Shown here: positions 1-56,484 of the stretch, one piece after another | Layout: each line of letters begins with the position of its first letter | Position numbering within the stretch: the first letter of the stretch is position 1 | Assembly: GCA_045628045.1 (NCBI GenBank) | Contig: JAZQOV010000011.1 | Location: forward strand, 4,912 to 68,911 | DNA length: 64,000 nucleotides | Source of the DNA: Bacilli bacterium | GTDB taxonomy: Bacteria; Bacillota_I; Bacilli_A; RFN20; CAG-826 | Reading direction: 5' to 3' | Translations under genes and position numbers: made by a program | The notes under the pieces: generated by a model | What the model was told of the DNA's origin: nothing | Databases searched by the model: none | What the model saw: only the letters and a program-made list of their open reading frames with translations

Positions 1-1440
1 ATTGTTTTAGGTGAAACAAAGGCATTTAAGATCGCAGTTAAAGTTGCAGCATGCGTGCTTGTCGCGCTTATGTTTGCAAGATCTTATTGTAACGATAGAT
101 TTGTTGTTATTATTAACAAAGGTTATTTTGAAGGACGTTTCTACGATAACGCTACTCCAGAAACTAATTTACTTGCTATCTTAAGATGGATTCAATTTGC
201 GTCCTTATGTATTATTATTCCTGCTGTTTTCTACGATAATCGCATATTTAGAAATATGGCGAAGTATTTCTGCGCTCCTTTTGGCGTAGTTAACTTATTC
301 TTCCTAAGTAAGTATTTAGATGATTTTAATATCCTTGCAGTTAGTGGAGTTGGCAAAAATAAAGGATTCTACGTCCAACCTTCTATAAGAACACCATTTG
401 TTATTATTGAATTTGTCTTATTTATTGTTGTTCCAGCACTTTTATTCTTCATGGAATCTGGAAAGAAATATTACTCAACCAAAAAAGAAATCATTCTTAC
501 TTGTATTTACGTGCCATGCGCTATTGCGTTATGCCCACCTGTATATTTATTTCAATCAGTTTTTGGATTTACAGAGAAATTTATGCTTTTAGGCACTTCT
601 AGTTGGTTCTTGTGGGTGCTTTCAATACTTGTACTTCTAGCAGGAATTTATTTCCTATTTAGATTCAAGGATAAAACAACAAGAGAATCTGTCATTCTAA
701 TGCTTGCGCTATACACGTTCATGCATTACAACACGATTTATATGATGGATTTAGTTGCATCACGCTTGCCACTTCAATTATGTAACCTTGGTTCATATTT
801 GATTTTAATTGCATGCATTTTCCATAATCAAAAATTCTTTAACTTCATCTTTATTGGAAACGTTTTTGGTGCGGTTGTTGCTACAATTATTGGCTACGAT
901 AGTAATGAATTACTATCATTCTGGTCAATGCACTACATCATTGAGCATACTTGGGTTATTAATTTACCACTTTTAATGGTTGCCTTTAGACTTTATGAAA
1001 TGCCTGACTTTAGAAAGAAAGCATTACTTCACTTCTTTATCGGATTCACAATCTTCTTTGTGGTCTGCTGGAGCGGTGGTTTTGTTCTCAACTGTTTCTT
1101 ATTTAAACAAGGCCATAAATTCTTTAATCACGTCAACTACTTCTACATGTATGACAATACGGTTGCGAATGTATTCCCGTTCTTAGGATTTACAAAAGCG
1201 GGTTCTATAACAATAAACAATTACACATTCTATCCGATTTATCAGGCTGGAATTTATATTGGATACATGGCTCTTTGTATCGCGTTTTATTTCTTAATTT
1301 GGTTTAGCCAAAGCGTTGCAGAGAGACATTTCAAACTTAGAAAATTAAGAATTAATTTCTTAAAAGAAAAAGGATTCTACAAGAAATTCCATCTTGAAGA
1401 GCCATTACTTGAATACAAAAAAGAAAGCGAGGAGAAGTAA
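1..1440 (+). CDS. Polytopic integral membrane protein (at least 10 predicted TM helices). The 5' end is probably outside the window. The first in-window start is GTG at 55, but the frame is open back to nt 1 and the upstream residues complete a TM helix.
   Basis: Long ORF 55..1440 in the six-frame track. The same frame has no stop between nt 1 and 55. The product is strongly hydrophobic and repetitive. There is no RBS upstream of 55. Confidence 0.55.
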   Translation: MVLGETKAFKIAVKVAACVLVALMFARSYCNDRFVVIINKGYFEGRFYDNATPETNLLAILRWIQFASLCIIIPAVFYDNRIFRNMAKYFCAPFGVVNLFFLSKYLDDFNILAVSGVGKNKGFYVQPSIRTPFVIIEFVLFIVVPALLFFMESGKKYYSTKKEIILTCIYVPCAIALCPPVYLFQSVFGFTEKFMLLGTSSWFLWVLSILVLLAGIYFLFRFKDKTTRESVILMLALYTFMHYNTIYMMDLVASRLPLQLCNLGSYLILIACIFHNQKFFNFIFIGNVFGAVVATIIGYDSNELLSFWSMHYIIEHTWVINLPLLMVAFRLYEMPDFRKKALLHFFIGFTIFFVVCWSGGFVLNCFLFKQGHKFFNHVNYFYMYDNTVANVFPFLGFTKAGSITINNYTFYPIYQAGIYIGYMALCIAFYFLIWFSQSVAERHFKLRKLRINFLKEKGFYKKFHLEEPLLEYKKESEEK

Positions 1441-11826: not shown

Positions 11827-12711
11827 TTAATTTAATATTGATATATATTTATTCAATCTTTCCAATAAATATTTAGATATAAGTTTTTTCATTGGCTCAA
11901 GATTGTGCTTTAAATGAAATGCATCAAAAGCATCATAATAAGCACGTCTGTCGCTATATTTAATATCAATAGGTGGGAATCCTTGTTTCATTAATTCTAG
12001 ATTTAATAAGAGCCTTCCAGTTCTTCCGTTTCCATCAATAAAAGGGTGAATTGCTTCAAATTCAATATGGAATCTTGCTAATTTTGTAACAATATCTTCA
12101 TTAGATGTATTGTAGTTACAAATTAATTCATTCATTTTTGGTTCAATAGCATACGGTTGAACAGGTGTATGCTTTGAGCCCATTATTCTGACAGGGACCC
12201 TTCTGTAAACCCCTTTGTCTTGAGGTTGATCAGATAAAACCAAGGCATGTATTTGTTTAATTATACTTTCACCAATTTCAGTGTTTTCTTTCACTAAGTC
12301 GCATATAAAATCAAACGCTTCTTTGTGGCCAACAACTTCGAGATGATCTTTTAATGGTTTTTTGTCAATGGTAAGACCTCTTAGAACCATATCCGTTTCT
12401 CTTAGTGTTAATGTATTACCTTCGATGGCGTTGCTGTTATATGTGAACTCTACAACGAATTCCTCATTTAATCTTTTAATTTCGCCAGGCGTTAATGGCC
12501 TTTTAGAATCTAATATATTTTTAAGTTCTAAAATTTTGGATAAATAGTTTTCGTTGTTTTTGATTCTGCCATCAATTGGTTTTACGGCATCATCTGGTAT
12601 AAACCACGTTTTTCCATACAATTCTGCTCCATCAATTTTGCCTTCTGCACAAAGAATGCGAATCCTTCTGTCAGATATATTCCATTTTAGACTAGCTTCT
12701 TTAGTATTCAT
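11827..12711 (-). CDS. fic: Fic-family AMPylation (adenylyltransferase) protein, class II (N-terminal inhibitory helix)
   Basis: Canonical Fic motif HPFIDGNGRTGR. Inhibitory motif SNAIEGN ([ST]xxxE[GN]). The N-terminal 45 aa look like a small DNA-binding domain. RBS GGAGG 9 nt upstream of ATG. Confidence 0.85.
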   Translation of the reverse strand: MNTKEASLKWNISDRRIRILCAEGKIDGAELYGKTWFIPDDAVKPIDGRIKNNENYLSKILELKNILDSKRPLTPGEIKRLNEEFVVEFTYNSNAIEGNTLTLRETDMVLRGLTIDKKPLKDHLEVVGHKEAFDFICDLVKENTEIGESIIKQIHALVLSDQPQDKGVYRRVPVRIMGSKHTPVQPYAIEPKMNELICNYNTSNEDIVTKLARFHIEFEAIHPFIDGNGRTGRLLLNLELMKQGFPPIDIKYSDRRAYYDAFDAFHLKHNLEPMKKLISKYLLERLNKYISILN

Positions 12712-12730
12712 TATCGATTGCCTCCGACTT

Positions 12731-12790
12731 TATCGGAATAATAATAACACATATCGGAATAATAATAAAGCAATATCGGAATAATATTAA
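12731..12790. repeat. Three direct repeats TATCGGAATAATAAT(A) with 21-22-nt period, immediately upstream of the minus-strand fic start
   Basis: Copies at 12731-12747, 12752-12768 and 12774-12790 seen directly. They lie in the -10..-70 region relative to the fic ATG. Confidence 0.7.
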
Positions 12791-12982
12791 AAATGTGTTT
12801 TTGTTTCACGATTATAACGATTTGGGATACGTACCTAATTTGTTACACCAAAAGTGTAACCGCGTGTATCGGTGACTAGTAGTAACACGTGATTACAAGT
12901 GACATGTTTGTTAACATCGAGGTAGGGTTGCAAAAATGTATGTAACACGGTAATAAAATGGTAATGGTTTTCCTATTGTTTT

Positions 12983-13009
12983 TGACAAAAATTTAGTTTC
13001 AGTATAATA
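12983..13009 (+). promoter_or_regulatory. Consensus sigma70-type promoter (TTGACA-15 nt-TATAAT) driving the DUF285 surface-protein gene
   Basis: TTGACA at 12983-12988 and TATAAT at 13004-13009. Confidence 0.55.
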
Positions 13010-13167
13010 CAGTTATATGACAGCCACGTATAGGCAAAACACTAATCATACGTCTTGTTACGGTACATGTGGAGACTGTCGTTTCGTTAATTTTTAAGCA
13101 AAAATAGCAAATTGTTGTTGCTCCCTGCAATTTGACTTTTATATATTGTTTCTTTACAATTCATATT

Positions 13168-15582
13168 ATGAATTACTTTAAAAACATCAGTAAAAACACA
13201 AAAATATTGGCGATTTTGCCGTCATTTTTCTTAACTCTAGTTTCGTTTGTCTCGATAGGACACGACAAAATATCTGAAGTAAAAGCAGAAGAAAATAAGA
13301 TTTTTATAGCAATTGATAGCACAGAAGGAATTGGCTACATTTCGTCTGTCGATAATGATTTAATTCGTGGGACAAATTATTTTTGCGAAGTTGATCCAAC
13401 TTTAACTCGTTCAGCGACAATCTTTTTACAAGATAAATACCAAGGATCCCAAGATTACTTAGGAGACATAAAAAAAGTCGTAATTTTAGATAATGTCGAG
13501 CTTAATAACTGTTCCTTCCTCTTTGGAAATCTCGAAAATCTAGAAACTATTGAGAATTTAGGAAACATTAGTGTTCCAGTATGTTCATCTTTCGAATATA
13601 TGTTCAGTGGTTCTCCAAAATTAAGAGAAGTGGATTTTACAGGTTTTGATGTTTCTAATTGCAGTAGTTTTAAAAACATGTTTTATGACTGTGCACTTGA
13701 AACAATAGATTTATCTGATTTTGACACTTCAAGTTGTGGTGATTTCCACTATATGTTCGATTCATGTCGCAATTTAACATCCTTAGATTTATCTTCTTTT
13801 GATACAAGAAATGCTTCGTCAATGGTAGGCATGTTTTCTGGATGCTCTTCATTAGAATATCTCGATATTTCAAGTTTTGATTTATCAAATAGCCCACGCA
13901 CTGATGAATTTTTATTTGGCACAAAACCAAAAGTTATTGTTGCGCCTAAGTGTGTTCCGGAGCACGCAGTTGATAATATTGTTAAATTTGATCTTCCTCA
14001 AGAAACAGAAGAAAAACCTTACTATTATGATTATGACCTCAACACTTATGAGGAAATGGCTGAATCCAATAAATCTATAACTTATTATCACCACTCATTA
14101 ATACGTACGCTTGAATCTGCGTCGTTTACTTGTTCAAATTCTTTTAAAGAATACGAAGATTTAGATAATTTAGATATTGATGAATTAATTTCGCATTGGG
14201 ACTTCCTTTACGATACGCTTTTTGGATTTCTTCCAAAGAAAGACAATGAACCAATTTACACAATTTTAGAAAAATGCAAGGCTGACACCATCAACGTTGA
14301 AGTAGGAAAATGGCTCACTATTTATGACAAGGTTTATCCACACTATTGCCATGCTTTACAAGAATGTGGTGGAGACTTTTTGAATAGATGTCCAGACGCA
14401 TTAGATCCTGATGGTCTTGTTCATATTGGAGTAAATACAGATGAAAATATTGGTTATCTTTCTTCTTTTGATACCTACGAAATCTTAAAATCTGATTTGC
14501 GAACAAAAGTCGATTTATCCGTGAAAACCATAGGAAATTCAGTATTTTCTCTCTTAGATTCGAATGGATATGAAGATATTACTAAAGTCGTAATTCAAGA
14601 TGAAATTAGTCTTTCGGATTGCTCAAATTTCTTTAAAGGTTTGACCAATCTTGTTTTAATTGATGGAATGAAAAAAGTAAATACTGAGCTCAACACAAAA
14701 TGTATTTCAATGTTTGAGGATTGTTCTAAATTAGAATCTGTTGACTTATCTGCATTTAACACAGAGAAGGTTATTGTTACAGATTGCATGTTTAAAGGAT
14801 GCGTATCGTTAGGAGAAATTACTGGACTTTCTTTCACCTCAAAAACATTAGTTTCTATGTCAGAGATGTTCTCAGGATGCCAAGCCTTAGTATTACTTGA
14901 TTTATCTAGTTATGATTTAACTAACGTAGAAAACACCTTTAATTGTATTTATAATACAACTCCTAATTATATTAAGACTCCAAAAGCGATGCCTACTAAA
15001 GCAAATTGCGATATAGATTTGTATTTCCCTATGGGCATTATAAATTTTGGTTACTACGATTTGTCTTTTGCTACATACACCAAATTACCAAGTATCAATA
15101 GTTCCATTACATTAATTAGTGAAATCGGCAAATATGTCTTAGAAGATTTCTGTGATGATTTTGGTAAAGACACCGCGTATTATTGCGATGCAAACGGAAA
15201 TACAGCAGAAGCAAAATTAATTAGTCTTTGGGAAGGGCAATCTAAGGAATTCAATAAGCACTTTAAAGGTACTCAACACGAATGTTTATTAGAATTCTTT
15301 GGGAAAGATAATTCTTCATGTACTAACACTTCATTGAAGAATTTCTCGGCAAAATATGACTATATTTACGGAAAATACCAATCATTTTTAGATGAACATG
15401 GTGGAGATTTCGCTAATAGATCAAAGCTTATTTCATTCCCAAATAGTTCAGCATTTATTCGTTTCAATCACACTACAAATGAGTCATCTGTTTTAATAAT
15501 TTGTATTATTTCTATTGCTAGCGTTTCAACATTAATTTGTTTAGTGTTTACAAAAAAGCGTATTTCTGCTAAAAGGAAATAA
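13168..15582 (+). CDS. Surface protein with Cys-containing leucine-rich repeats of the DUF285/BspA-like type, N-terminal signal peptide and C-terminal TM anchor
   Basis: Repeated about 26-aa units ...FDTSSCGDFHYMFDSCRNLTSLDLSSFDTRNASSMVGMFSGCSSLEYLDISSFDLSN... C-terminal VLIICIISIASVSTLICLVF + KKRISAKRK. An alternative TTG start at 13132 is in the ORF track. ATG 13168 gives a clean signal peptide, MNYFKNISKNTKILAILPSFFLTLVSFVSIG. Confidence 0.7.
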   Translation: MNYFKNISKNTKILAILPSFFLTLVSFVSIGHDKISEVKAEENKIFIAIDSTEGIGYISSVDNDLIRGTNYFCEVDPTLTRSATIFLQDKYQGSQDYLGDIKKVVILDNVELNNCSFLFGNLENLETIENLGNISVPVCSSFEYMFSGSPKLREVDFTGFDVSNCSSFKNMFYDCALETIDLSDFDTSSCGDFHYMFDSCRNLTSLDLSSFDTRNASSMVGMFSGCSSLEYLDISSFDLSNSPRTDEFLFGTKPKVIVAPKCVPEHAVDNIVKFDLPQETEEKPYYYDYDLNTYEEMAESNKSITYYHHSLIRTLESASFTCSNSFKEYEDLDNLDIDELISHWDFLYDTLFGFLPKKDNEPIYTILEKCKADTINVEVGKWLTIYDKVYPHYCHALQECGGDFLNRCPDALDPDGLVHIGVNTDENIGYLSSFDTYEILKSDLRTKVDLSVKTIGNSVFSLLDSNGYEDITKVVIQDEISLSDCSNFFKGLTNLVLIDGMKKVNTELNTKCISMFEDCSKLESVDLSAFNTEKVIVTDCMFKGCVSLGEITGLSFTSKTLVSMSEMFSGCQALVLLDLSSYDLTNVENTFNCIYNTTPNYIKTPKAMPTKANCDIDLYFPMGIINFGYYDLSFATYTKLPSINSSITLISEIGKYVLEDFCDDFGKDTAYYCDANGNTAEAKLISLWEGQSKEFNKHFKGTQHECLLEFFGKDNSSCTNTSLKNFSAKYDYIYGKYQSFLDEHGGDFANRSKLISFPNSSAFIRFNHTTNESSVLIICIISIASVSTLICLVFTKKRISAKRK

Positions 15583-15607
15583 TTAAGTAATATAGGAGGA
15601 ATAAATA

Positions 15608-16525
15608 ATGAAAAATAACTTTAATAAGGCAGCGTTGTTATTACCAATTATTTTAACTTCGTGTTCTTTAGCGACTTCCGGAGAAAAAGCAAAAAATTTT
15701 TACGACAAAATTTGTGATGAGATAATAGAATTTGGAAACCCTAGAGATGATGATTTTGCTATTTCTTTCAAAGGTCGTTACAAAATTGGTGATGTCGAGA
15801 TTAGAAATATTGACGGCTTTTTCGATGGTAGATTTATAAATATTATTGGTGATTATTATAACGAAAGACTGACCGCAAAATATTATACATTTGATGAACT
15901 AGGCGAAAACGGATTGCCTTATCCATATACTTACTCATCTTTGTTAAATTCAGAAAATGAAACAGTTCTTGTTAGTAGAAGAAAACCATTTGATGGAATA
16001 CAAAATTATTGTGTTTTCCCGGACAAAATTGATGAATATAACGAAATTTACAATAATATTTTTAGAGTTTCGATATGTATAATGGAGTATGGATTATTTG
16101 CTTCTGATCGTTATAGTGAAGAATCGCTCAAACAAGTTTTCTTGTTAGCTGATGAAGAAAGAATTGAATTTGATTTATCAGATCGCGTTAAGTATAGTTA
16201 TGAAAAGAATGAAAATCTTGTTTTTACGATTTCTAGCGATTTAGATTCAATTGGGCCTTTTACTATTCTTTCTCCGGATCAATCAGTCAGATTTGCATAT
16301 TGGAATAAAATGGCAAACGGACCGACAGGAAATTATTGGAAGAAAATCACGGTAGATAAGAAAACATATCAAGTTAAGAAAGTTGAAGTTTCATATAAAG
16401 GAATTGATACAAGATTATTACCAGGCGCGTCGACAGACTTTTATTTTGAATTTGAGCCTCGTGAGCAAAGCACTTCATCTTATAAAGATCAATTTAAGAT
16501 AAGTTGCGATTCATATTTTGATTAA
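15608..16525 (+). CDS. Lipoprotein of unknown function
   Basis: RBS AGGAGGAATAAATA. Signal MKNNFNKAALLLPIILTSCSLA (lipobox LTSC). Confidence 0.7.
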   Translation: MKNNFNKAALLLPIILTSCSLATSGEKAKNFYDKICDEIIEFGNPRDDDFAISFKGRYKIGDVEIRNIDGFFDGRFINIIGDYYNERLTAKYYTFDELGENGLPYPYTYSSLLNSENETVLVSRRKPFDGIQNYCVFPDKIDEYNEIYNNIFRVSICIMEYGLFASDRYSEESLKQVFLLADEERIEFDLSDRVKYSYEKNENLVFTISSDLDSIGPFTILSPDQSVRFAYWNKMANGPTGNYWKKITVDKKTYQVKKVEVSYKGIDTRLLPGASTDFYFEFEPREQSTSSYKDQFKISCDSYFD

Positions 16526-16531
16526 GATAAA

Positions 16532-16560
16532 GCATCCTTAAAAGGATGCATTTTCTTTTT
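16532..16560 (+). terminator. Rho-independent terminator
   Basis: GCATCC(TT)-aaaa-(AA)GGATGC hairpin followed by ATTTTCTTTTT. Confidence 0.7.
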
Positions 16561-16587
16561 AAAAATGGATTTTTAGAAAATAATTAA

Positions 16588-16617
16588 TTGAATCTTTGCA
16601 TCAAAATTAGTTATAAT
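16588..16617 (+). promoter_or_regulatory. Strong sigma70-type promoter, copy 1 of 3 (TTGAAT-18 nt-TATAAT)
   Basis: TTGAAT 16588-16593 and TATAAT 16612-16617. Near-identical copies at 16857-16886 and 17439-17468. Confidence 0.6.
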
Positions 16618-16623
16618 ATTTTT

Positions 16624-16698
16624 ACCACAATACACCTTATGGTGTGATTAGTGATTAAGATCGGTGTTTCGACCGCTTAGTGCGGTGCCGGTCTTTTT
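16624..16698 (+). ncRNA. Candidate about 75-nt small RNA, copy 1 (promoter + hairpins + U-tract terminator)
   Basis: Begins 7-8 nt after the -10. Hairpin ACACC-uuau-GGUGU. Mutually exclusive hairpins CGGU-guuucg-ACCG and ACCGC-uuagu-GCGGU. GACCG...CGGUC followed by UUUUU. The copy-2 substitution (t->c) falls in a loop. Confidence 0.4.
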
Positions 16699-16726
16699 CT
16701 TTCCGGATAAAGTTTATATATTGTAT

Positions 16727-16829
16727 TTTACATAATATTATTCTTTGTTATAATAATGATGCGGTTGCGATAAAAGGCTTATGCCTCGCAGTGCAATTAG
16801 GGCACCTTAATGGCAGCCTTTTTCTTTTT
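16727..16829 (+). ncRNA. Candidate short structured transcript between the two repeat copies
   Basis: Promoter TTTACA-16 nt-TATAAT at 16727-16754. Following about 65 nt are flanked by AAAAGGCU ... AGCCUUUUU long-range complementarity, with an inner hairpin AGGC-uua-UGCCU, ending in a T-tract. Confidence 0.25.
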
Positions 16830-16892
16830 AAAAATAATATTTTAGAAAATAATGAATTGAATTTTTACATCAAAATTAGTTATAATATTTTT

Positions 16893-16968
16893 ACCACAAT
16901 ACACCTTATGGTGTGATTAGTGATAAAGATCGGTGTTTCGACCGCTTAGCGCGGTGCCGGTCTTTTTT
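16893..16968 (+). ncRNA. Candidate about 75-nt small RNA, copy 2. It is antisense to the 3' end of the minus-strand 131-aa ORF.
   Basis: About 95% identical to 16624-16698. Promoter TTGAAT 16857-16862 / TATAAT 16881-16886. T-tract 16963-16968. Overlaps the last ~17 codons of ORF 16917..17312 (-). Confidence 0.4.
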
Positions 16969-17312
16969 CTTTCTAGATAAAGTTCATATATTGTATCTGA
17001 CTTAAGAACATCCTTTTTGGACAACCCCCTTTTTATGTACTTCTCGCTATAGGTTTTCGCAGGGTAACTCCTAATTCTTTGTATAAAATAACTCTGCAAC
17101 GAATTATTTACTTTAAATGGTTTACATAACTTCGTATTTGCCTTGCCTTCCGAATAAGGCTTTGAAGTCAAAAAAACACTTGATAAGATTAGCCCATCTT
17201 TTGTAGCTATAATTGCTTTAATGTGGCCATAATGTCCATGTTTATAATTATAACGAATTTGCCCAATTCTATAATTTCTTCCGATATTGATTTTAATAAT
17301 TTGTTTGCACAT
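16917..17312 (-). CDS. Hypothetical basic 131-aa protein. The C-terminal ~17 codons are encoded by the antisense strand of repeat copy 2.
   Basis: ATG at 17312 is preceded by RBS AAGGAGA (minus strand). The ORF reads through into the repeat. No recognisable domain. Confidence 0.45.
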   Translation of the reverse strand: MCKQIIKINIGRNYRIGQIRYNYKHGHYGHIKAIIATKDGLILSSVFLTSKPYSEGKANTKLCKPFKVNNSLQSYFIQRIRSYPAKTYSEKYIKRGLSKKDVLKSDTIYELYLERKKTGTALSGRNTDLYH

Positions 17313-17330
17313 GTTGTTGTCTCCTTGGGC

Positions 17331-17403
17331 TCAAGAATATTTTACCATCTCTAAAGCAAGCCGATTCCCGTTTTTCATAACATTTTAAAGAACATAGTTC
17401 TTT
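17331..17403 (-). promoter_or_regulatory. Conserved ~73-nt leader, orientation minus. It has the palindrome AAAGAAC-ata-GTTCTTT (17387-17403) and a potential 15-codon uORF (MKNGNRLALEMVKYS, 17378..17331). It is homologous to 51905-51979.
   Basis: About 85% nucleotide identity over about 64 nt with the region upstream of the yhcG-like gene. The palindrome is perfect in both copies. Confidence 0.5.
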
Positions 17404-17438
17404 CTTTTTAAAATTCAACATTTTTAGAAAACAATGAA

Positions 17439-17468
17439 TTGAATTTTTTCATCAAAATTAGTTATAAT
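17439..17468 (+). promoter_or_regulatory. Promoter copy 3 (TTGAAT-18 nt-TATAAT), driving a structured leader and the 85-aa ORF
   Basis: TTGAAT 17439-17444 and TATAAT 17463-17468. Sequence identity to copies 1 and 2 stops 10 nt after the -10. Confidence 0.6.
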
Positions 17469-17474
17469 ATTTTT

Positions 17475-17625
17475 ACCATAAAGAGTACGGCGAGGGACAA
17501 GCCCTATGACCCGTCAGCAACCTGCGTATAGCAAGGTGCTAAAGCTTGACTGATGGTTGTTTTTATTTTATAAGCCGTCAGTATCGATGGCTTTTAATTT
17601 CTTTGTGGTAGATAAGGAGGCTTAT
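17475..17625 (+). promoter_or_regulatory. About 150-nt structured 5' leader (attenuator/riboswitch-like) ending in an intrinsic terminator just before the RBS
   Basis: Nested stem ACGG-cg-AGGG-acaag-CCCU-auga-CCGU. CAACC...GGUUG + UUUUUAUUUU. Terminator hairpin GCCGUC-aguauc-GAUGGC + UUUU (17569-17596). RBS AAGGAGG at 17614-17620. Confidence 0.35.
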
Positions 17626-17880
17626 ATGCCACAGAAAACATTACAAAACGATCTTTACGTAGTCGTTATCTCTTCTAAAGAAGAAAGAGATGAACTTAAA
17701 GCATTATGCGTAAAACATAACATTCCTCTTCTTTATCCAGAGTTATTTAAGGAAGAGGAGATTCATCACTTATGGGGAATCTCTAAAAACGGTGTTGCTT
17801 TAGTGGGCACAATGATTGCAAGACATACACCTAAAGAGAATATATTTCATTCTGTTAAAGAACTGGAATGTATTCTCTAA
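17626..17880 (+). CDS. Hypothetical 85-aa protein (MPQKTLQNDLYVVVISSKEERDEL...)
   Basis: ATG 17626 with a perfect RBS AAGGAGG 6 nt upstream. The track's longer ORF from 17557 would span the leader terminator, so it is rejected. Confidence 0.55.
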   Translation: MPQKTLQNDLYVVVISSKEERDELKALCVKHNIPLLYPELFKEEEIHHLWGISKNGVALVGTMIARHTPKENIFHSVKELECIL

Positions 17881-18155
17881 TATCTTTTCTTGATAGAGAA
17901 GCGTAAGCAAGTTCTCGTATAACAAGAAAAGTGCGCTAAATTTCAATCCTTAAATGTCTATTAAATTAGCATCACGGTTAACACTTGCTCGTATTTACTA
18001 GGGGAAGCGGTAGTTATCTTTTCTTAAATTGCGCTATTTCCTGCCAATAAACAAGACTGGTTGTATTGGCTTTTTGTGTACTAAGAAAAGCAAATTTCGA
18101 TATTGAAATACTGCATATTTTTTAGTAAAATATATTCAGTAAAAGAAAGGTTAAT

Positions 18156-49496: not shown

Positions 49497-49868
49497 CTAG
49501 ATCTTCTTAAAATGTTTCTTAGTCTTCTGTGCGTCTAATAATTCTTTTTCCAATTCTTCTTTCTTTGGGAGATGAGTTATATATTTAGTCACAAAGATTT
49601 GGTTCGTAATATTTCCTAGTGCATATTCTACCTGTATGTGATCATAGTCAGTACACATGACAATACCAACAGGGTCATTGTCGCTCGATTTATTAACGTT
49701 TTCCTTAAAATAATTTAGGTAAGTGTTAATTTGGCCCATTACATCTTTTTTAAATGGAGTGGCTTTTAGCTCAATGAGCACATAACATTTAAGATTTTCA
49801 TTATAGAACACTAAATCGACAAAATATTTCTTGTTATCAATTAAAAATTGATACTGATTATCATTGAA
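49497..49868 (-). pseudogene. C-terminal fragment of a YhcG/DUF1016-family PD-(D/E)xK nuclease gene split by the IS element
   Basis: The frame is open from 49868. FNDNQYQFLIDNKKYFVDLVFYNENLKCYVLIELK... aligns with the YhcG core (…FIDLLFYHRRLRCLVLIDLK…). Confidence 0.65.
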
Positions 49869-50010
49869 CTACCCCCACTTAAACATTCTATGTTTAGAAG
49901 ATGGGGGATTCCTACTCAAGAATCCTCGAGGATTCAGTGTCGATAGGCTAACCCCGTAGTTCCTACGGTTTGGTGGACTACCACTATTGTTTTTGAAGTA
50001 CTAATCTAAT
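49869..50010 (-). ncRNA. Predicted omegaRNA (reRNA) scaffold of the TnpB element (3' end of tnpB plus right end)
   Basis: Dense hairpins on the minus strand: CCCCCAUCU...AGUGGGGG, GAAUCCUCGAGGAUUC palindrome, CCGUAGGAACUACGG. Position is as expected for IS605-family omegaRNA. Confidence 0.4.
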
Positions 50011-51132
50011 TCCTTCTTTTTTGATATTAATTGCTGCATTTATATCTCTATCATGCTTTCTACCACAGATAGGACAAATCCAATCTCTATCATTTAATTC
50101 AAGACTTTTGTTGATGTAACCACAATCACTGCAAGTTTTACTAGACGGAAAGTACCTATCTACTTTTATTAATTCCTTACCTAACCATCTTAATTTGTAA
50201 TCTAGAAAATTGACAAAAGTTCCATATGCTCGATCAGATAGATTTCTGCCCAACTTCATTTTTGTATCTTTTGATTGCATTGATTTCAAATCTAAATTTT
50301 CTACAAAAACATAATCGTATTTATTTGCAATTTTTCTGGATTCTTTATGCAAAAAATCTTTCCTAGAATTTGAAATATGAAGTTGAAGTTTTCTGACTTT
50401 TTGCCAGGATTTAATGGAGTTTTTGCTACCTTTTTGGCATTTTGATGCTCTTCTGGTTAATTTTGCAAGTTTCTCCATTTCGTTTTGAAGATACTTTGGC
50501 ATATCTGCGTGATTGCCATCGCTATCGACATAAAGATGTGACAAAGAAAAATCTAATCCTATTGAGTTGTTGATATCAAGTTTTTCAAGCTTGTCGAATA
50601 ACTCGACGTTTGGATTATCTTCTTCACCAGTCAATGTCACAAAATACATGTTTGCAACTCTAGAGATGGTGACTGTGGTAAAAGAGAATGATTCAGGCAT
50701 CAAACGAGATACTACAACTTTAACTCTGCCTAATTTAGGAATTTGGATTTCGTTACCATCAAGGCGGAGGTTATTGTTGATTTTCATAGTTGTGTAGCTA
50801 TGATCATTTCTTTTGGATTTAAATTTTGGAAAAGAACCTCTATGTTCAAAGAAATTAATATACGCAGCATGTAAATGAATAATGGCTTGTTGCAAAGCAA
50901 CACTATCAACTTCTTTTAAGTATTCATACCCTTCTTTGTAATCAGGAAGTATTTTGACTAAATCAAATTTTCTCAATTTAAAAGAAGGATCTTCCGCGTG
51001 CTTTTCGACACACATTTCAAGAAAATCATTATAGACTTGGCGAACGCATCCTAAAGTTTTCTCAATTTGTTGTTTTTGAGAAGAATTAGGATAGATTCGA
51101 AATTTATAAGCTTTCTTTATTTTCTTTTCCAT
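49984..51132 (-). CDS. tnpB: TnpB (IS605 OrfB family RNA-guided nuclease)
   Basis: N-terminus KAYKFRIYPNSSQKQQIEKTLGCVRQVYNDFL. RuvC-I IGLDFSLSHLYVDSDGN. RuvC-II YVFVENLDLKSM. Zn-finger CSDCGYINKSLELNDRDWICPICGRKHDRDINAAINI. Confidence 0.9.
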   Translation of the reverse strand: MEKKIKKAYKFRIYPNSSQKQQIEKTLGCVRQVYNDFLEMCVEKHAEDPSFKLRKFDLVKILPDYKEGYEYLKEVDSVALQQAIIHLHAAYINFFEHRGSFPKFKSKRNDHSYTTMKINNNLRLDGNEIQIPKLGRVKVVVSRLMPESFSFTTVTISRVANMYFVTLTGEEDNPNVELFDKLEKLDINNSIGLDFSLSHLYVDSDGNHADMPKYLQNEMEKLAKLTRRASKCQKGSKNSIKSWQKVRKLQLHISNSRKDFLHKESRKIANKYDYVFVENLDLKSMQSKDTKMKLGRNLSDRAYGTFVNFLDYKLRWLGKELIKVDRYFPSSKTCSDCGYINKSLELNDRDWICPICGRKHDRDINAAINIKKEGIRLVLQKQ

Positions 51133-51239
51133 ACTTATATTATACTATCATTTCTTAAGAAATGATAGTGTTATTTCATTTTTTGCTTGCAATTCATCCC
51201 GCCGCTTTACGAGCTTCAAGCGTGGGTCTTCTTGCTAAA

Positions 51240-51887
51240 TTAGATAAATCTAAAACCTGAGCCTAGTTCTAAAAGGAATTCTTTCATGTGCGTTATAATA
51301 CCTTTTTCAATTTCTTTTTCCCTAAGGTTAAAACCTTTTTTGAAGAAATTAATTACAATCGGATCTACCATTACATCTTTTGGTTCAACAATCTGATTCC
51401 CAAGAGTGGATAATTGATTCTTTTTTGCCTCTATATTTTCTTTTGAGCCCAGTAAGATTCTTTGATAGTATCCCGATTGTATTTGTCTTTTTAAATCCCT
51501 GACAGACCATCTTTGTTTTGCACACTCTATTTCATAGAATTTTCTTTCTTCATCATTTTTTACATTTAGAAGACAAAAGTAATGCCCCCATGATAAAGTG
51601 GGAAACAGTGTTTCCCAATTTTTATATATAATATAAAAATTTAACATTGCTTTAATGTTTCTTCTTGAATACCCAGAGCCGAATTCTTTGGTTAGCTCAT
51701 TAGAAATTGAACTAATCGTGCGCTTTTTATAATCGCTTTTTCCTTTATTGGAGTCGATGTCTTTTTGAATTTGTTCCCCTATATACATATAAAGCTTAAG
51801 TAATTCAGTATTAACGTTATATATGATTTTTGCCTTCGTTGTTTCTATTGCATTTTTTAAATTTATTACTAGTTTATTTTCTTTCAT
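51240..51887 (-). pseudogene. N-terminal fragment of the YhcG/DUF1016-family nuclease gene (ends ...LGSGFRFI* at the IS junction)
   Basis: DUF1016 N-domain pattern ...TLSWGHYFCLLNVKNDEERKFYEIECAKQRWSVRDLKRQI... RBS GGAGGAGG. Confidence 0.65.
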
Positions 51888-51904
51888 AACCTTTCCTCCT
51901 CCGG

Positions 51905-51979
51905 CTTAAGAACATTTTAACATCTCTGAGGCTAACTGATTCCCGTTTTTCATAACACTCTAAAGAACAAAGTTCTTTC
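51905..51979 (-). promoter_or_regulatory. Conserved leader, copy 2. It has the palindrome AAAGAAC-aaa-GTTCTTT (51963-51979) and a 15-codon uORF (MKNGNQLASEMLKCS). It is homologous to 17331-17403.
   Basis: Seen directly. Lies upstream of the yhcG-like N-fragment. Confidence 0.5.
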
Positions 51980-52121: not shown

Positions 52122-53297
52122 ATGTATGACATTAATATAAAAGTTTGCGAAAATACTAAAGTTTTTATTTTTAATGGTCCTATCGACTCTAACGTTACAG
52201 ACGAAATTAAAAATTTCGTTGAATCGAATTCTTCTGGCTCTGATAGCGTTATTTTTGATATGGAAAAAGTTCCATACATGTCTAGTGCAGGCCTTAGAGT
52301 AGTGCTTAAGACTGCTAAATCAGTAAAAGAATTTGAAGTTATCAATGCTTCTGTAGAGTTATATAACATTTTCGACATGGTTGGGTTTACCCAAATGATC
52401 AAAATTAAGAAAGCCATGAGAGAAATTTCTATCGAAGGAAAAGAACTTATTGGAGAAGGTTATATGGGTAAAGTCTATAGACTTGATCCAGATACAATCA
52501 TCAAAGTATTTAAAAGAACCTCTGATACTTCTGATATCGAAAGAGAAATTTCTTTGGCAAAGAAAGCATTCATTCTTGGAGTTCCTACCGCAATACCTTT
52601 TGACATAGTCAAAGTTAAAGAAGGTGGCTACGGTTCTGTATTTGAACTTCTTAAATCATCTTCATTTAATAAATTATTTATTAATCATCCTGAGAAGGAA
52701 GATGAATACATTAAGATGTACGTGAACATCATTAAGACAATTACTTCTATTGAGGCTAAAAACCCTAGTGAGTTCCCTCGTAAGATAAATGATGCGTTAA
52801 CTTGGGTAAATGGTCTTAAGGAAGCAAAAGCCTATGATGAAGCTACACTTGCTAAACTTGAAAAATTAGTTAACACAATTCCTGAGAGTTCGCACTTAAT
52901 TCATGGTGATTGCCACATCAAAAATATTATGATGCAAGGTGATGAACCATTCCTTATTGATATGGACACTTTGGGTGTTGGGCACACCATATTTGAGTTA
53001 ACTGCAATATTCTTAACTTATATCGGATATCCTGATAAATTCCCAGGAAATGTCCAGGAATTCCTAGGTATTTCCGATGAAACCGCTAAGAAATTATTCT
53101 ATTCAACAATTGATTCTTTATACGCAGATAAATCAAAAGAAGAAAGAAACACAATTGTTGAGAAATGTGCTTTGTTTGGTTATATGTGGTTAACATACAA
53201 GACATTATTATTTGAACCAGAAAATAAAGTAAGACTTGATAACGCAAAAGAGAAAGTTATGAGTCTTATTGATAAATACGACACACTTAATTTTTAA
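52122..53297 (+). CDS. STAS domain fused to a protein-kinase-like / aminoglycoside-phosphotransferase-like domain
   Basis: N-terminal STAS (MSSAGLRVVLKTAKSV...IFDMVGF). Gly-rich loop GEGYMGKVYR. Lys IIKVFK. Catalytic HGDCHIKNIMM. IDMDTLG. Confidence 0.65.
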   Translation: MYDINIKVCENTKVFIFNGPIDSNVTDEIKNFVESNSSGSDSVIFDMEKVPYMSSAGLRVVLKTAKSVKEFEVINASVELYNIFDMVGFTQMIKIKKAMREISIEGKELIGEGYMGKVYRLDPDTIIKVFKRTSDTSDIEREISLAKKAFILGVPTAIPFDIVKVKEGGYGSVFELLKSSSFNKLFINHPEKEDEYIKMYVNIIKTITSIEAKNPSEFPRKINDALTWVNGLKEAKAYDEATLAKLEKLVNTIPESSHLIHGDCHIKNIMMQGDEPFLIDMDTLGVGHTIFELTAIFLTYIGYPDKFPGNVQEFLGISDETAKKLFYSTIDSLYADKSKEERNTIVEKCALFGYMWLTYKTLLFEPENKVRLDNAKEKVMSLIDKYDTLNF

Positions 53298-53315
53298 TGA
53301 AAGAAGGACACGAAA

Positions 53316-53612
53316 ATGGAAATAAACAAACTTGTAGAGAAAGACACTCTCACACTTGCTATTGAAGGAAGACTTGATACTTTAACATCTCCAACCCTTC
53401 AAGAAACAATTAATTCATCACTTGAAGGCATTGTTCATTTAGTAATTGATCTAAAGAAAGTTGTCTATATTTCGAGTGCCGGATTAAGAGTAATTTTAAG
53501 TGCACAAAAATTAATGAATACGAAAGGTGATATGGTTGTAAAAAATTGTTCAGCTGAAGTCCTTGAAGTTTTTGAAATGACAGGATTTACTGAGATTTTA
53601 ACGATAAAATAA
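53316..53612 (+). CDS. STAS-domain anti-sigma-factor antagonist (SpoIIAA/RsbV-like)
   Basis: 98 aa. ISSAGLRVILSAQKLM...VFEMTGF. RBS GAAGGA. Confidence 0.8.
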   Translation: MEINKLVEKDTLTLAIEGRLDTLTSPTLQETINSSLEGIVHLVIDLKKVVYISSAGLRVILSAQKLMNTKGDMVVKNCSAEVLEVFEMTGFTEILTIK

Positions 53613-53613
53613 T

Positions 53614-56484
53614 ATGGAATTCCTGGATATTTTTAAATTTATAATAGCTGCAATCATTCCAATTCTTTTAAGCGTTGGCTGTATTTATCTTGAGAAAACA
53701 AGAAGATTTTCTAAGTTAAACAAATACGTTAAAGCTTTAATATTTGGAGTTATTTTTGGCATCAGTTCAATTAGTGGAACTTTACTTGGTTTAAAACTAC
53801 CAAATGGCGCAATCATCAACGTGCGTGATGCCTCTCCTATTATATGTGGTCTTCTTTTTGGTGGACCATCAGGAATTTTGGCTGGCTTAATTGGCGGCGG
53901 CTTTAGAGCACTTACTCCTCTTTGGGAACCATCGACAGCTTACACAGTTGTTGCATGTTCTATTTCAACCGCAATGGCTGGTGTATTTACTGTGTTTGTT
54001 AGACATTTCATCTTTGATGATAAAAAAGGTACTTGGTACTATGGATTCTTCCTTGGCGTATTAGTTGAAGACTTCCATATGATGATGTCTGTGCTTACAC
54101 ACACAGAAGATATTGTTAAGGTTTATAACTCAGTTATAAAAGTATGTACAGTTCCAATGGTATTAGCAAATTCATTAGCGGTAATGATTGCAATTATTAT
54201 TGTTAATTTAATAAATCACGAGAAAATATTTGAAAAAGAAGTCAGAACTCATATTTCTACAAAGGTTCAGGTTTCTTTGATTCTTTCTCTTGTTGTTTCT
54301 TATGTTGCAACTGCGTTATTTACGAATATGTCTGTTAATAAAGTTGTTCAAACAAATATTAAAGGTCAATGTGAAAACGCTATAAGCGATGTTATTAATA
54401 ATGTTGATGACACAATCAACAATGTTATGAGTGACAAACTTGATGAAGTCGCAATAAAACTTCTTGATGAAGTAAAACCATTAGAAAAAGATAGGCTTTT
54501 ACGTAAAGAAGCATTAGTAAGTATTCTTAATGATTTCTCTGGTGAGATTTCTGAAATCAATATTGTTGGCACTGATGGTTTTGTTCATTATTCCACAGAT
54601 CAATACGATTTTATGGAAGACGGAAGTGGACCATTTAACATGGAAATTGGTGACCAATCAAGAGAATTTAATGTCTTACTTAAAGAAGGCGAAACAAACT
54701 ATTTTATCCAGGAATTCCGCGAGATTTCTGCGTATGATGGCGGAAAATCAATGAAATATGCTGGCTATAGATTTGATGCTGAAGACATTGAATCAGACTT
54801 CTGTTATTTCCAAATTGGTTTAGATGCTGCAAGGTATCACGAACTACTTCAAGACTATGTTGATGAATGTGCTAAATTTAGACACATTGGTGAAGAAGGA
54901 TTCGTTGTAGTTAGCGATGAAAATGGTGCAATTGTTTCAACAATCGTTGATTGTCCATTTACTGAAACAATTGATGTAAATAAGTTCCTAAACGATGGTT
55001 ACGATAAATATTACACTTACTCTAAATTTGTTGAAGGTTACTACATTGTTGCTTTTGCAGGCGCTGAAGAAAGTGATTTAGCATCCGTAATTTCATTCAC
55101 TGCAATTTCTCTTGCTGAAGTTTTTGTTTATTTGCTTTTATATTGCGTTTTATATATAGCAGTTAAACGTAGAATCGTTGATAAAATTAAAACTATAGGC
55201 TTAAGCCTAAATGAAATTTCTTCAGGAAACTTAGATGTTGTTGTTAATCAAAGAGACAGTTATGAATTTGATTCATTAAGTAACGACATTAATAAAACTG
55301 TTGGAACTCTTAAAGAGTTCATTGCGAAAGAAGCTAATAAGAATGCTGAAGAGTTAGCATTTGCTAAAAACATTCAATATTCTGTTCTTCCAACCGCTTT
55401 CCCAATGAATGATAGATTTGAAATTTATGCTTCTATGTCAACCGCCAAGACTGTTGGTGGTGACTTCTATGATTTCTATTTTATAGATAGAGAGCATGTA
55501 TTAATTGAAATCGCTGATGTTAGTGGAAAAGGTATTCCTGCCGCTATGTTCATGATGAGAGCAAAATCTGTTCTTAAATCACTTATAGAATCAGGTATTG
55601 GAATTGAAAATGCCTTTATTGAAGCAAATAGAAAACTTTGTCAAGGTAATGATACTCAAACATTTATTACGGTTTGGGGTGGAATTATCGATTTAACTAC
55701 AGGACATGTTGACTTTGTCAACGCTGGTCATAATCCTCCAATTATTTGTAGAGATGGCAAATTTGAGTACTTACATAGTAAACCAGGCTTTGTTTTAGCA
55801 GGTTTAGAAGGATTTAAATACGTTAAGCAAAGCTTTGACATTAAGCCAGGTGATATGATTTATCTTTATACTGATGGTGTTACTGAAGCTAATAACGAAA
55901 AACATGAACTTTATGGAGAAGAAAGACTTCTTAAAGCAATTGGAGATAAAACATATACTTCTAAATCTATTTGTGAAACTGTCTCAAAGAGTTTGAAGAA
56001 GTTTGTGAATGATGCAGAACAATCTGATGATATTACAATGCTCGCATTTAAATTCTATGATGTTGAGCTCGCTAATATTAAAGTTGTGGATGCAGACTTA
56101 AAGAATTTACCAGAAATCATAGATTATATCGATGATTTGCTTGATAAAAATAACGCCACATTATCTGCAAAATCACAAATCGATGTAGCAGTGGATGAGA
56201 TATTCTCAAATATCGCATTCTACGCTTATCCAGAAGGCCAAGTTGGTAAGGTCAAAGTTTCAGTCATTATGTCTAAAGACAATGAAGAAATGACCATTAT
56301 CTTTGAAGATAAAGGAAAAACATATAACCCACTTGAGAAAGAAGATCCAGATACTTCACTATCTCTAGAAGAGAAGTCTATTGGTGGACTAGGTATATTT
56401 ATTGTTAAAAAGACAATGGATTCATTAGAATACGATAACGTTAATGGTCATAACGTATTAACCCTCAGAAAGAAGATTCATTAG
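53614..56484 (+). CDS. Membrane sensor: multi-TM + extracytoplasmic domain + HAMP + SpoIIE/PP2C phosphatase + C-terminal RsbW-like HATPase_c (anti-sigma kinase) domain
   Basis: N-terminal 5-6 TM helices. HAMP-like VDKIKTIGLSLNEISSGNLDVVV. PP2C GGDFYDFYFID...IADVSGKGIPAAMFMM...DGVTEA...DDIT. HATPase VDEIFSNIAFYAY...SIGGLGIFIVKKTMDSLEY. Confidence 0.75.
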   Translation: MEFLDIFKFIIAAIIPILLSVGCIYLEKTRRFSKLNKYVKALIFGVIFGISSISGTLLGLKLPNGAIINVRDASPIICGLLFGGPSGILAGLIGGGFRALTPLWEPSTAYTVVACSISTAMAGVFTVFVRHFIFDDKKGTWYYGFFLGVLVEDFHMMMSVLTHTEDIVKVYNSVIKVCTVPMVLANSLAVMIAIIIVNLINHEKIFEKEVRTHISTKVQVSLILSLVVSYVATALFTNMSVNKVVQTNIKGQCENAISDVINNVDDTINNVMSDKLDEVAIKLLDEVKPLEKDRLLRKEALVSILNDFSGEISEINIVGTDGFVHYSTDQYDFMEDGSGPFNMEIGDQSREFNVLLKEGETNYFIQEFREISAYDGGKSMKYAGYRFDAEDIESDFCYFQIGLDAARYHELLQDYVDECAKFRHIGEEGFVVVSDENGAIVSTIVDCPFTETIDVNKFLNDGYDKYYTYSKFVEGYYIVAFAGAEESDLASVISFTAISLAEVFVYLLLYCVLYIAVKRRIVDKIKTIGLSLNEISSGNLDVVVNQRDSYEFDSLSNDINKTVGTLKEFIAKEANKNAEELAFAKNIQYSVLPTAFPMNDRFEIYASMSTAKTVGGDFYDFYFIDREHVLIEIADVSGKGIPAAMFMMRAKSVLKSLIESGIGIENAFIEANRKLCQGNDTQTFITVWGGIIDLTTGHVDFVNAGHNPPIICRDGKFEYLHSKPGFVLAGLEGFKYVKQSFDIKPGDMIYLYTDGVTEANNEKHELYGEERLLKAIGDKTYTSKSICETVSKSLKKFVNDAEQSDDITMLAFKFYDVELANIKVVDADLKNLPEIIDYIDDLLDKNNATLSAKSQIDVAVDEIFSNIAFYAYPEGQVGKVKVSVIMSKDNEEMTIIFEDKGKTYNPLEKEDPDTSLSLEEKSIGGLGIFIVKKTMDSLEYDNVNGHNVLTLRKKIH

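Follow-up and report, generated by a model that had tools for sequence, protein, structure and literature searches.

A probable portable promoter module upstream of recX, nuclease and toxin-fold genes in an uncultured lineage of Bacilli

Leader-peptide control of translation is known from the ermC and cat attenuators and from trp-type leaders. Among promoters, those with an extended -10 element can function without a -35 element, and others carry an activator site or the box of an alternative sigma factor in the place of the -35, as with class II activator sites; the sigma-B motif, for example, reads GTTT-N13-17-GGGWAT. Both kinds of control bear on a conserved block that precedes two genes in the stretch of DNA analysed here (the window, 64 kb), and that a sequence-only reading had described as a leader of about 90 nt containing a palindrome and a 15-codon upstream reading frame (uORF). 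The description of the block as a shared cis-regulatory module at gene starts holds; its description as a transcribed leader probably does not, most of it being probably promoter DNA 5' of the transcription start. We judge it probable that the block works as a promoter module, portable between genes, instead of being transcribed as a long leader.

Two copies of the block and their relatives

Both copies of the block lie on the minus strand of the window (G+C content 33%), and they align without gaps over 95 nt (17415-17321 versus 51990-51896; 85.3% identity, E 8e-27, blastn). An identity of about 85% had been claimed from the palindrome to the start codon; this value is correct for the core (17403-17331 versus 51978-51906; 62/73 = 85%), whereas the full stretch, from the palindrome to the last base ahead of the start codon, reaches 72/91 = 79%. 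Identity between the 100-nt flanks of the two copies is at background (35% and 31%), and hence the edges of the block are sharp; they fall about 12 nt 5' of the palindrome and at the Shine-Dalgarno sequence. The two palindromes were found where they had been placed, as were the 15-codon frames (MKNGNRLALEMVKYS and MKNGNQLASEMLKCS) and the AGGAG downstream of them, and the genes 3' of the copies are unrelated, as had been said: a 131-aa ORF without a family match follows copy A, and a DUF1016/YhcG nuclease gene follows copy B. A search of the window for further copies, with nhmmer at maximum sensitivity, returned these two only, both at gene starts. The terminal repeat of a mobile element, or a MITE, was considered as an identity for the block and rejected, there being 2 copies in 64 kb, every copy at a gene start and no matching ends. 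Stop codons in 34 long ORFs of the window (TAA 27, TAG 5, TGA 2) indicate that the standard bacterial code applies. The parts of the two copies and the genes that they would drive are as follows.

17387..17403, minus strand: copy A palindrome, AAAGAAC-TAT-GTTCTTT, centred at about -63 from the predicted start
17364..17378, minus strand: copy A upstream box, ATGAAAAACGGGAAT, at predicted -46 to -32 (invariant columns of alignment A2 and regular-expression matches, see below)
17339..17347, minus strand: copy A extended -10, TGGTAAAAT (TGnTAnnAT)
17332, minus strand: copy A predicted transcription start (G), which coincides with the second base of the TGA taken for the uORF stop
17321..17326, minus strand: copy A Shine-Dalgarno sequence, AAGGAG; start codon at 17312-17310
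16917..17312, minus strand: gene for the 131-aa protein, driven by copy A
51962..51978, minus strand: copy B palindrome, AAAGAAC-TTT-GTTCTTT
51939..51953, minus strand: copy B upstream box, ATGAAAAACGGGAAT (alignment A2 invariant columns and regular-expression matches)
51914..51922, minus strand: copy B extended -10, TGTTAAAAT
51907, minus strand: copy B predicted transcription start (A), placed in the same register as that of copy A
51895..51902, minus strand: copy B Shine-Dalgarno sequence, GGAGGAGG; start codon at 51887-51885
51240..51887, minus strand: yhcG/DUF1016 PD-(D/E)xK nuclease gene, N-terminal part, driven by copy B (DUF1016_N, 7e-38; PADLOC PDC-S02, 5.6e-59)
49497..49811, minus strand: yhcG gene, C-terminal part, downstream of an inserted IS605-type element (Pfam YhcG_C, 6e-29)

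Relatives of the block were reached through protein homologues of both downstream genes and then through the contigs that encode them. The 131-aa protein had two homologues only in a set of 5.8 billion proteins, and the protein search with the yhcG fragment returned a handful of close ones. Related upstream sequences were obtained from loci L009, L007, L004 (two copies), L006, L010, L012/L013 and L014; ten further promoter-proximal sequences on related metagenomic contigs align ungapped with the block. The genes 3' of these relatives are yhcG/DUF1016 nuclease genes, members of the 131-aa family, a 49-aa ORF and three recX genes. Alignment of the relatives with copies A and B (alignment A2) is free of gaps from the supposed ATG of the uORF to just beyond its supposed stop, and this gap-free core comprises ten distinct sequences. 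A RhuM-like identity considered for the 49-aa ORF of L007 and for a fragment in L004 was not confirmed by Pfam or NCBIfam.

Searches by sequence pattern gave little in other collections. The 20-mer TGTTATGAAAAACGGGAATC had only two matches in the genome contig collection, both by chance (Pseudomonadales and Flammeovirgaceae) and without the palindrome; two patterns, based on the peptide and on the geometry, had no match in the metagenome contig collection; and four scans of the viral collection returned nothing except one chance match in a G+C-rich contig. The element thus seems confined to a rare lineage, seen only in Logan/ENA assemblies. All of the comparison sequences belong to one narrow uncultured lineage, and common ancestry, instead of constraint, may account for part of their conservation.

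Promoter signals and the 15-codon frame

The invariant columns of alignment A2 read GAAA-N3-G-N-GAA, 17 nt, TG-N-(T/C)A-NN-AT. Its consensus string is atGAAA...G.GAAt....tt.....a....TGttA..AT.T...T.a, in which GAAA, G.GAA, TG, A..AT and T are invariant; within the -10 region of the ten core sequences, TG and A..AT are without exception and the T of TA is present in 9/10. Expressed as GAAA-N3-G-N-GAA-N17-TG-NN-A-NN-AT, the pattern occurs at 15 places (12 distinct) in 130 kb, every one of them on the coding strand and just 5' of a start codon, against an expectation of 0.02 matches in shuffles. The recX loci L015, L016 and L017 all match the expression (3/3); the invariant columns had been fixed before these loci were fetched, and the expression itself was written after they had been read.

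A TTGACA-like -35 hexamer is absent at 16-18 bp spacing from the -10, the hexamers at this place reading GAATCG, GAATCA, GAATAG and the like, and a consensus promoter scan does not call the block promoter in either A or B. Its place is taken by a box of 15 bp, ATGAAAAAYGRGAAT, at about -46 to -32, with a GCGAAA variant in L004/L015. The box is nearly identical ahead of recX genes that encode proteins with just 46% identity to each other, and also ahead of unrelated genes, which argues for a trans-acting partner. Compared by eye with the motifs of sigma-54, sigma-B, sigma-H, ECF factors, the ComX cin-box and CodY, the box gave a partial fit in one or two sequences and not across the family. Its A-tract resembles a proximal UP-element subsite, which does not account for the invariant G.GAA.

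The distance from the -10 to the start codon separates two kinds of locus. At matches with a Shine-Dalgarno sequence the start codon follows the TG by 35-55 nt; measured from the -10, it lies 35 nt away in both A and B, and 38 and 41 nt away at other window genes preceded by a TGnTAnnAT site. At the recX genes, the start codon lies 6 nt (L015 and L004b) or 8 nt (L016/L017) past the -10 hexamer, and none of these starts has a Shine-Dalgarno sequence; the geometry is thus that of a leaderless gene, and it places the start at the position of the 'stop codon' in A and B. One of these genes is the one preceded by the second promoter copy of L004 (L004b), which belongs to the RecX family (Pfam RecX_HTH3, 1e-5; NCBIfam RecX, 2e-30). 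The recX arrangement may be taken as near-independent support for the predicted transcription start. For copy A the start is put at 17332 on three grounds: its distance of 6 nt from the -10 hexamer, the presence of T(-1)R(+1) in all group-1 sequences, and the leaderless recX genes of L015 and L016.

Taken together, these signals suggest a promoter of four parts. The first would be an A/T-rich palindrome of 7-3-7 form, not always present, with its centre about 63 bp 5' of the start; the second, the 15-bp box in the place of the -35, a putative contact for an activator or for an unusual interaction with sigma factor and RNA polymerase; the third, the extended -10, TGnTAnnAT; and the fourth, a purine 7 nt further on at which transcription would begin, followed by a 5' untranslated region of about 20 nt with a strong Shine-Dalgarno sequence. 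The 15-codon frame would accordingly span the DNA from the box to the start site and be mostly untranscribed, with its ATG forming part of the box, its codons 11-14 the extended -10, and its stop (TRR) the bases T(-1)R(+1)R(+2). Promoters of this type would drive the chromosomal recX-yhaM operon in relatives as well as mobile accessory genes, among them those for the YhcG nuclease and the MazF-fold 131-aa protein, and have been exchanged among genes by recombination. Conservation, spacing, the association with genes and the shuffling are observed directly, whereas the start site and the parts played by the box and the palindrome are inferred.

Before the frame was placed against these promoter signals, it had been proposed to act in control by leader peptide or attenuation. 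Transcription would then begin 5' of the palindrome, or at the uORF ATG itself to give a leaderless message, a 15-residue peptide would be translated, and translation of the main gene would be set by termination 5 nt before the Shine-Dalgarno sequence or by ribosome stalling. Consistent with this, the frame is intact in five sequences (A, B, L007, L009 and L004a), in each of which it stops exactly 5 nt before AGGA. Copy A further carries, just upstream, a weak sigma-70-like call of the consensus scan (TTAAAA-18-TAAAAT, 17411-17382) that spans the palindrome and could yield a transcript including the uORF; this site is not conserved, copy B having 8/12 matches by eye and no call, nor is it conserved in L009. 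Against the peptide, the frame is broken in seven sequences, two by loss of the ATG (ACG in L010, GAG in L006) and five by early stops (among them L012 after 5 codons, and L014, L004b and L016 after 12), and no copy has an AGGAG-like site within the 15 nt 5' of the uORF ATG. The variable columns are distributed over codon positions 1/2/3 as 10/10/7, the reverse of what coding would give, and the check for coding selection across copies found no excess at third positions. Nor do the changes between the two window copies, which had been called conservative, depart from chance: A and B differ by 3 synonymous and 4 non-synonymous substitutions, and when substitutions were simulated at random, 26% of the runs gave four amino-acid differences at least as conservative (p = 0.26). 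The codons that are conserved coincide with TG-n-TA-nn-AT and Y(-1)R(+1), the stop triplet (TGA, TAA or TAG) lying 6-8 nt past the hexamer and reading T(-1)R(+1)R(+2) of the predicted start, and the recX versions have a real start codon at the 'stop' position. Given the broken frames, the absence of third-position bias and of a Shine-Dalgarno sequence, and the lack of an RNA fold described below, leader-peptide control is very improbable, and the uORF is most likely a by-product of promoter signals, judging from the alignment. If the promoter reading is right, the block presents a case of promoter signals mistaken by a scan for a short ORF, in which the A-rich box gives the ATG, the -10 happens to be free of stops in the frame, and Y(-1)R(+1) gives the stop.

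The palindrome and RNA structure

The AAAGAAC/GTTCTTT palindrome is present in three promoters only, A, B and L009 (the last with a spacer of 2 nt, not 3), and is missing from the recX, L007 and L004 promoters. L006 and L010 have TATTTAC-N3-GTAAATA, and in L014 the region is interrupted by the contig end. Palindrome centres are located 18-19.5 nt 5' of the box (about -63); in L012, ATTAAC-TAT-GTTAAT lies about one helical turn closer. Set against shuffles of its own 45-nt segment, each palindrome came out at 0.3-6%. The recX and L004a promoters have the terminator of an upstream tRNA operon in the palindrome's place. Sought as a possible second operator, copies of each group's palindrome arm near the start site have 5-6 matches in 7, but they occur across promoter groups too. 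A by-eye comparison of the L012 palindrome with the PrfA box gave no family-wide fit, and this candidate was dropped.

The proposal that a dimeric repressor binds a shared operator fails as a family-wide feature, the palindrome being limited to A, B and L009. That the stem is identical in all three while the neighbouring bases diverge suggests sequence-specific recognition, and the arm GTTCTTT agrees with the half-site consensus of SinR, which is a lead only. The spacer varies, however, and the site is far upstream. On the sequences in hand, the chance that the palindrome is an operator for a dimeric protein may be put at slightly below even.

Two described operators invite comparison. The LexA (Cheo) box of Firmicutes reads CGAAC-N4-GTTCG, and recX is an SOS gene in many bacteria. 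The palindrome is similar in that inverted GAAC...GTTC arms stand 5' of nuclease- and toxin-type genes and in that the promoter family includes recX, but it differs in its position near -63 and not over the promoter. As a formal match to the LexA box it was rejected, since the spacer is N3 in A and B and N2 in L009 instead of N4, and since it is absent at recX; no GAAC/GTTC palindrome occurs within the 45 nt 5' of the box in the recX promoters L015, L016 and L004b. For SinR, the operator half-site has a 7-bp consensus, GTTCTYT (PMC3163267). This is satisfied by GTTCTTT in A, B and L009, where the arms form an inverted repeat; the likeness is one of sequence only, in A/T-rich DNA, and does not extend to the group-2 arms, which are unrelated. 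The sole Xre-type gene near copy A encodes an HTH_3 antitoxin that is paired with a YafQ toxin.

Alternatively, the palindrome could be a structural hairpin that serves as a weak terminator or insulator for transcription of the opposite strand. On the plus strand it is followed by T-runs (CTTTTT in A, CTTTTG in B and ATTTTC in L009); it occupies the place that G+C-rich terminator hairpins have ahead of the neighbouring promoter's other two copies in the window; and between promoter groups the arms are wholly different while the 7-3-7 geometry and position are kept. The stem nevertheless has 2 G-C pairs only, the copy A hairpin alone amounts to -4.6 kcal/mol, and a terminator scan made no call; the group-2 palindrome TATTTAC-N3-GTAAATA is without a T-run on either strand; and a hairpin of this kind sits poorly with a stem that is identical in A, B and L009 despite diverged neighbours. 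We regard it as an unlikely alternative to an operator.

A structured cis-regulatory RNA, such as a riboswitch or a protein-binding leader, would have the AAAGAAC arm alternate between GTTCTTT and a downstream GTTCTTA/ATTCTTG. The minimum free energy (MFE) fold of copy B does pair the 5' arm with a downstream GUUCUU, and for copy A the prediction contains the hairpin. Shuffled sequences fold at least as well, though (MFE z +0.65 and +0.61), and the RNAalifold consensus fold of five relatives, at -1.56 kcal/mol, has a positive covariation term and so no supporting covariation. Rfam 15 gave no match to the block at the gathering threshold or at E 10, and none in the related loci, the only Rfam match in the window being a neighbouring SAM-I riboswitch on the other strand. 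Moreover, L007 and L004a have no such palindrome, and that of L012 is different, shorter and closer to the box. A structured RNA is accordingly the reading to which we give the least credence, as barely tenable.

Exchange of the promoter and the genes that it serves

The promoter and the genes downstream of it have separate histories, as judged from their identities. Promoters of L014 and L006 are 90% identical and the proteins 44%; those of B and L006 are 60% identical and the proteins 78%; those of A and L004a are 60% identical and the proteins 77%; and A and B have promoters that are 84% identical ahead of unrelated proteins. This discordance indicates that the module has been shuffled between genes. 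One exchange can be followed by comparison of an occupied with an empty site. In L015 (empty) the order is tRNA, terminator, promoter and recX; in L004, a cassette of about 800 bp with the 131-aa gene lies inside the spacer of the recX promoter, flanked by a direct duplication of 26-27 bp of the box region, AATGAAACTTGCGAAAATGTTTGAAA (L004 97-152 and 898-953 versus L015 1252-1305). With the insertion in the spacer, the cassette gene uses the resident box and its own -10, as a hybrid promoter, and recX keeps a complete promoter. These loci document the swapping of promoter modules between accessory genes, and a single crossover between two homologous promoters would explain the duplication in L004, although a dedicated site-specific mechanism may have acted instead.

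The window has a further repeated promoter beside copy A. This sequence, TTGAAT-18-TATAAT, occurs in three copies of about 95% identity that include the first transcript bases TTACCA (16589-16626, 16857-16895 and 17439-17477, plus strand); two of them drive an antisense small RNA and the third the SAM riboswitch. As a consequence, direct repeats of 60-75 nt flank the 131-aa cassette, as after a single-crossover insertion. Such repeats, together with the L004 cassette and its duplication relative to L015 and the discordant phylogenies of promoter and gene, could be read to mean that the block is mainly a site of recombination or a cassette boundary, with the box as an att-like crossover point for cassette swaps and promoter activity secondary. 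Yet no recombinase is associated with the cassette, and the duplication fits an ordinary single crossover between homologous promoters equally well; copy B is flanked by only a doubtful repeat of 22 nt (86% identity), probably due to chance; and promoter function, not recombination, accounts for the extended -10 and for the leaderless arrangement at recX. A primary role in recombination is improbable, and the block continues to be treated here as a promoter module.

The small RNA beside copy A is a conserved unit of about 75 nt that has its own promoter and overlaps, in antisense, the final ~55 nt of the 131-aa gene. Copies of the unit were located as follows.

16891-16970, plus strand: antisense small RNA unit, window
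16622-16695, plus strand: antisense small RNA unit, window
533-628, minus strand: antisense small RNA unit, L004
428-517, minus strand: antisense small RNA unit, L005

The unit has a 5' hairpin, in which pairing is kept although the stem sequence varies between loci, together with a branched terminator; the consensus fold amounts to -22 kcal/mol. The unit accounts for the last 16 codons of the 131-aa gene being almost identical as DNA across homologues that are 70-76% identical. Its two window copies are 98% identical, the second facing a decayed remnant of the 3' end of that gene (16694-16746). Combined with the gene of predicted MazF-like fold, the small RNA has a layout like that of type I toxin-antitoxin systems, here with a toxin of RNase fold, and this pair is a more unusual by-product of the analysis than the promoter block. 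Divergent from copy A is the SAM-I riboswitch (RF00162, 51.8 bits; 17473-17559, plus strand), followed by a terminator (17572-17593) and an 84-aa ORF (17626-17880) without a family match. The surroundings of copy A (11827-22908) form an accessory island with two Fic genes, the HTH_3/YafQ toxin-antitoxin pair, a DUF2779 gene and a surface protein with DUF285, a Mycoplasma-type domain; in strain L003, the sequence downstream of the 131-aa cassette is different. Upstream of the Fic gene at 11827-12711, an extended -10 lies amid three direct repeats of TATTATTCCGATA (12749-12790, minus strand), which may form an operator array.

Around copy B, an IS605-type element (49812-51239, minus strand) has been inserted in yhcG, so that promoter B drives a truncated gene. 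Its tnpB (49984-51132) encodes a protein of 382 aa (OrfB_IS605/Cas12f1-like_TNB), whose cluster has 63 members in related MAGs ('Bacilli bacterium' and Candidatus Fiminaster equi). A partner-switching-type module (52122-56484, plus strand) adjoins copy B divergently and comprises a fusion of STAS and APH-kinase domains, a STAS protein, and a membrane SpoIIE-type phosphatase fused to HATPase_c_2. In relatives, a conserved element, GGGTCAAAATTCGGCC.ATACGA..., lies 5' of the yhcG promoters (L006 3765-3860, L012 2515-2605 and L007 3330-3400); it is followed by a strong terminator in L006 and L012, and has its own TTGACA/TATCAA promoter in L006. It looks like a small RNA gene, and has no match in Rfam.

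Concerning the genes served, DUF1016 genes are known within restriction-modification and other defence loci (PMC9881135), and a PADLOC search matched the yhcG fragment to PDC-S02, a candidate defence system (5.6e-59). The 131-aa family has 12 representatives among 1.84 billion proteins, and no match in Pfam, PHROG, NCBIfam or PADLOC. An AlphaFold model of the protein reached pLDDT 86 with an alignment of 15 sequences (52 with one of 3 sequences), and the 15-sequence model was used; it predicts a MazF/Kid/ToxN-like fold, with which a Foldseek search agrees in kind, weakly (E 0.05, TM 0.5-0.6). The suggestion in the sequence-only reading of a small set of defence-related genes finds support in the PDC-S02 match and in this predicted fold.

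That one type of promoter stands ahead of genes for a RecA regulator, a nuclease and a toxin-fold protein hints at a stress regulon without proving it. Carried further, promoters of the ATGAAAAAYGRGAAT type might mark a lineage-specific, possibly DNA-damage-like stress regulon under an activator or sigma factor, coupling recX-yhaM to mobile nuclease and toxin cassettes that would include a MazF/ToxN-fold toxin checked by a cis-antisense small RNA (a type I-like pair), with the box doubling as the crossover point of the cassettes. This fuller proposal is offered as a speculation that is, in its entirety, rather unlikely to be correct. The promoter reading by itself, if right, supplies a compact cis-element with a clear search pattern, by which a regulon in an uncultured Bacilli lineage of the horse or animal gut could be charted and recX linked to toxin and nuclease genes.

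Of the described systems, the attenuators of ermC, cat and trp type share with the block a short ORF that ends a few nucleotides before the Shine-Dalgarno sequence of the regulated gene. The ORF of the block differs from theirs in having no ribosome-binding site, no conservation across the family, no supported alternative helices and no codon-like substitutions. The closer likeness is to extended -10 (TGn) sigma-A promoters of low-G+C Gram-positive bacteria and Mollicutes, with which the block has in common a TG one base before TAnnAT, the want of a good -35, a purine start about 7 nt downstream, and leaders that are short or absent; the generic type is without a strict 15-bp GAAA-N3-G-N-GAAT box, whereas the block has this box 16 bp before the TG, and the box was found only in this small gene set. 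Promoters that depend on an activator or an alternative sigma factor provide the remaining features, namely a conserved element at about -46 to -32, no TTGACA-like hexamer and functionally linked genes; in this comparison the block differs in that the motifs of the candidate factors fit the family only partially and inconsistently. The block thus belongs to a known class, that of the promoter/operator cassette, with the 15-bp box replacing the -35, and leaves current concepts unchanged.
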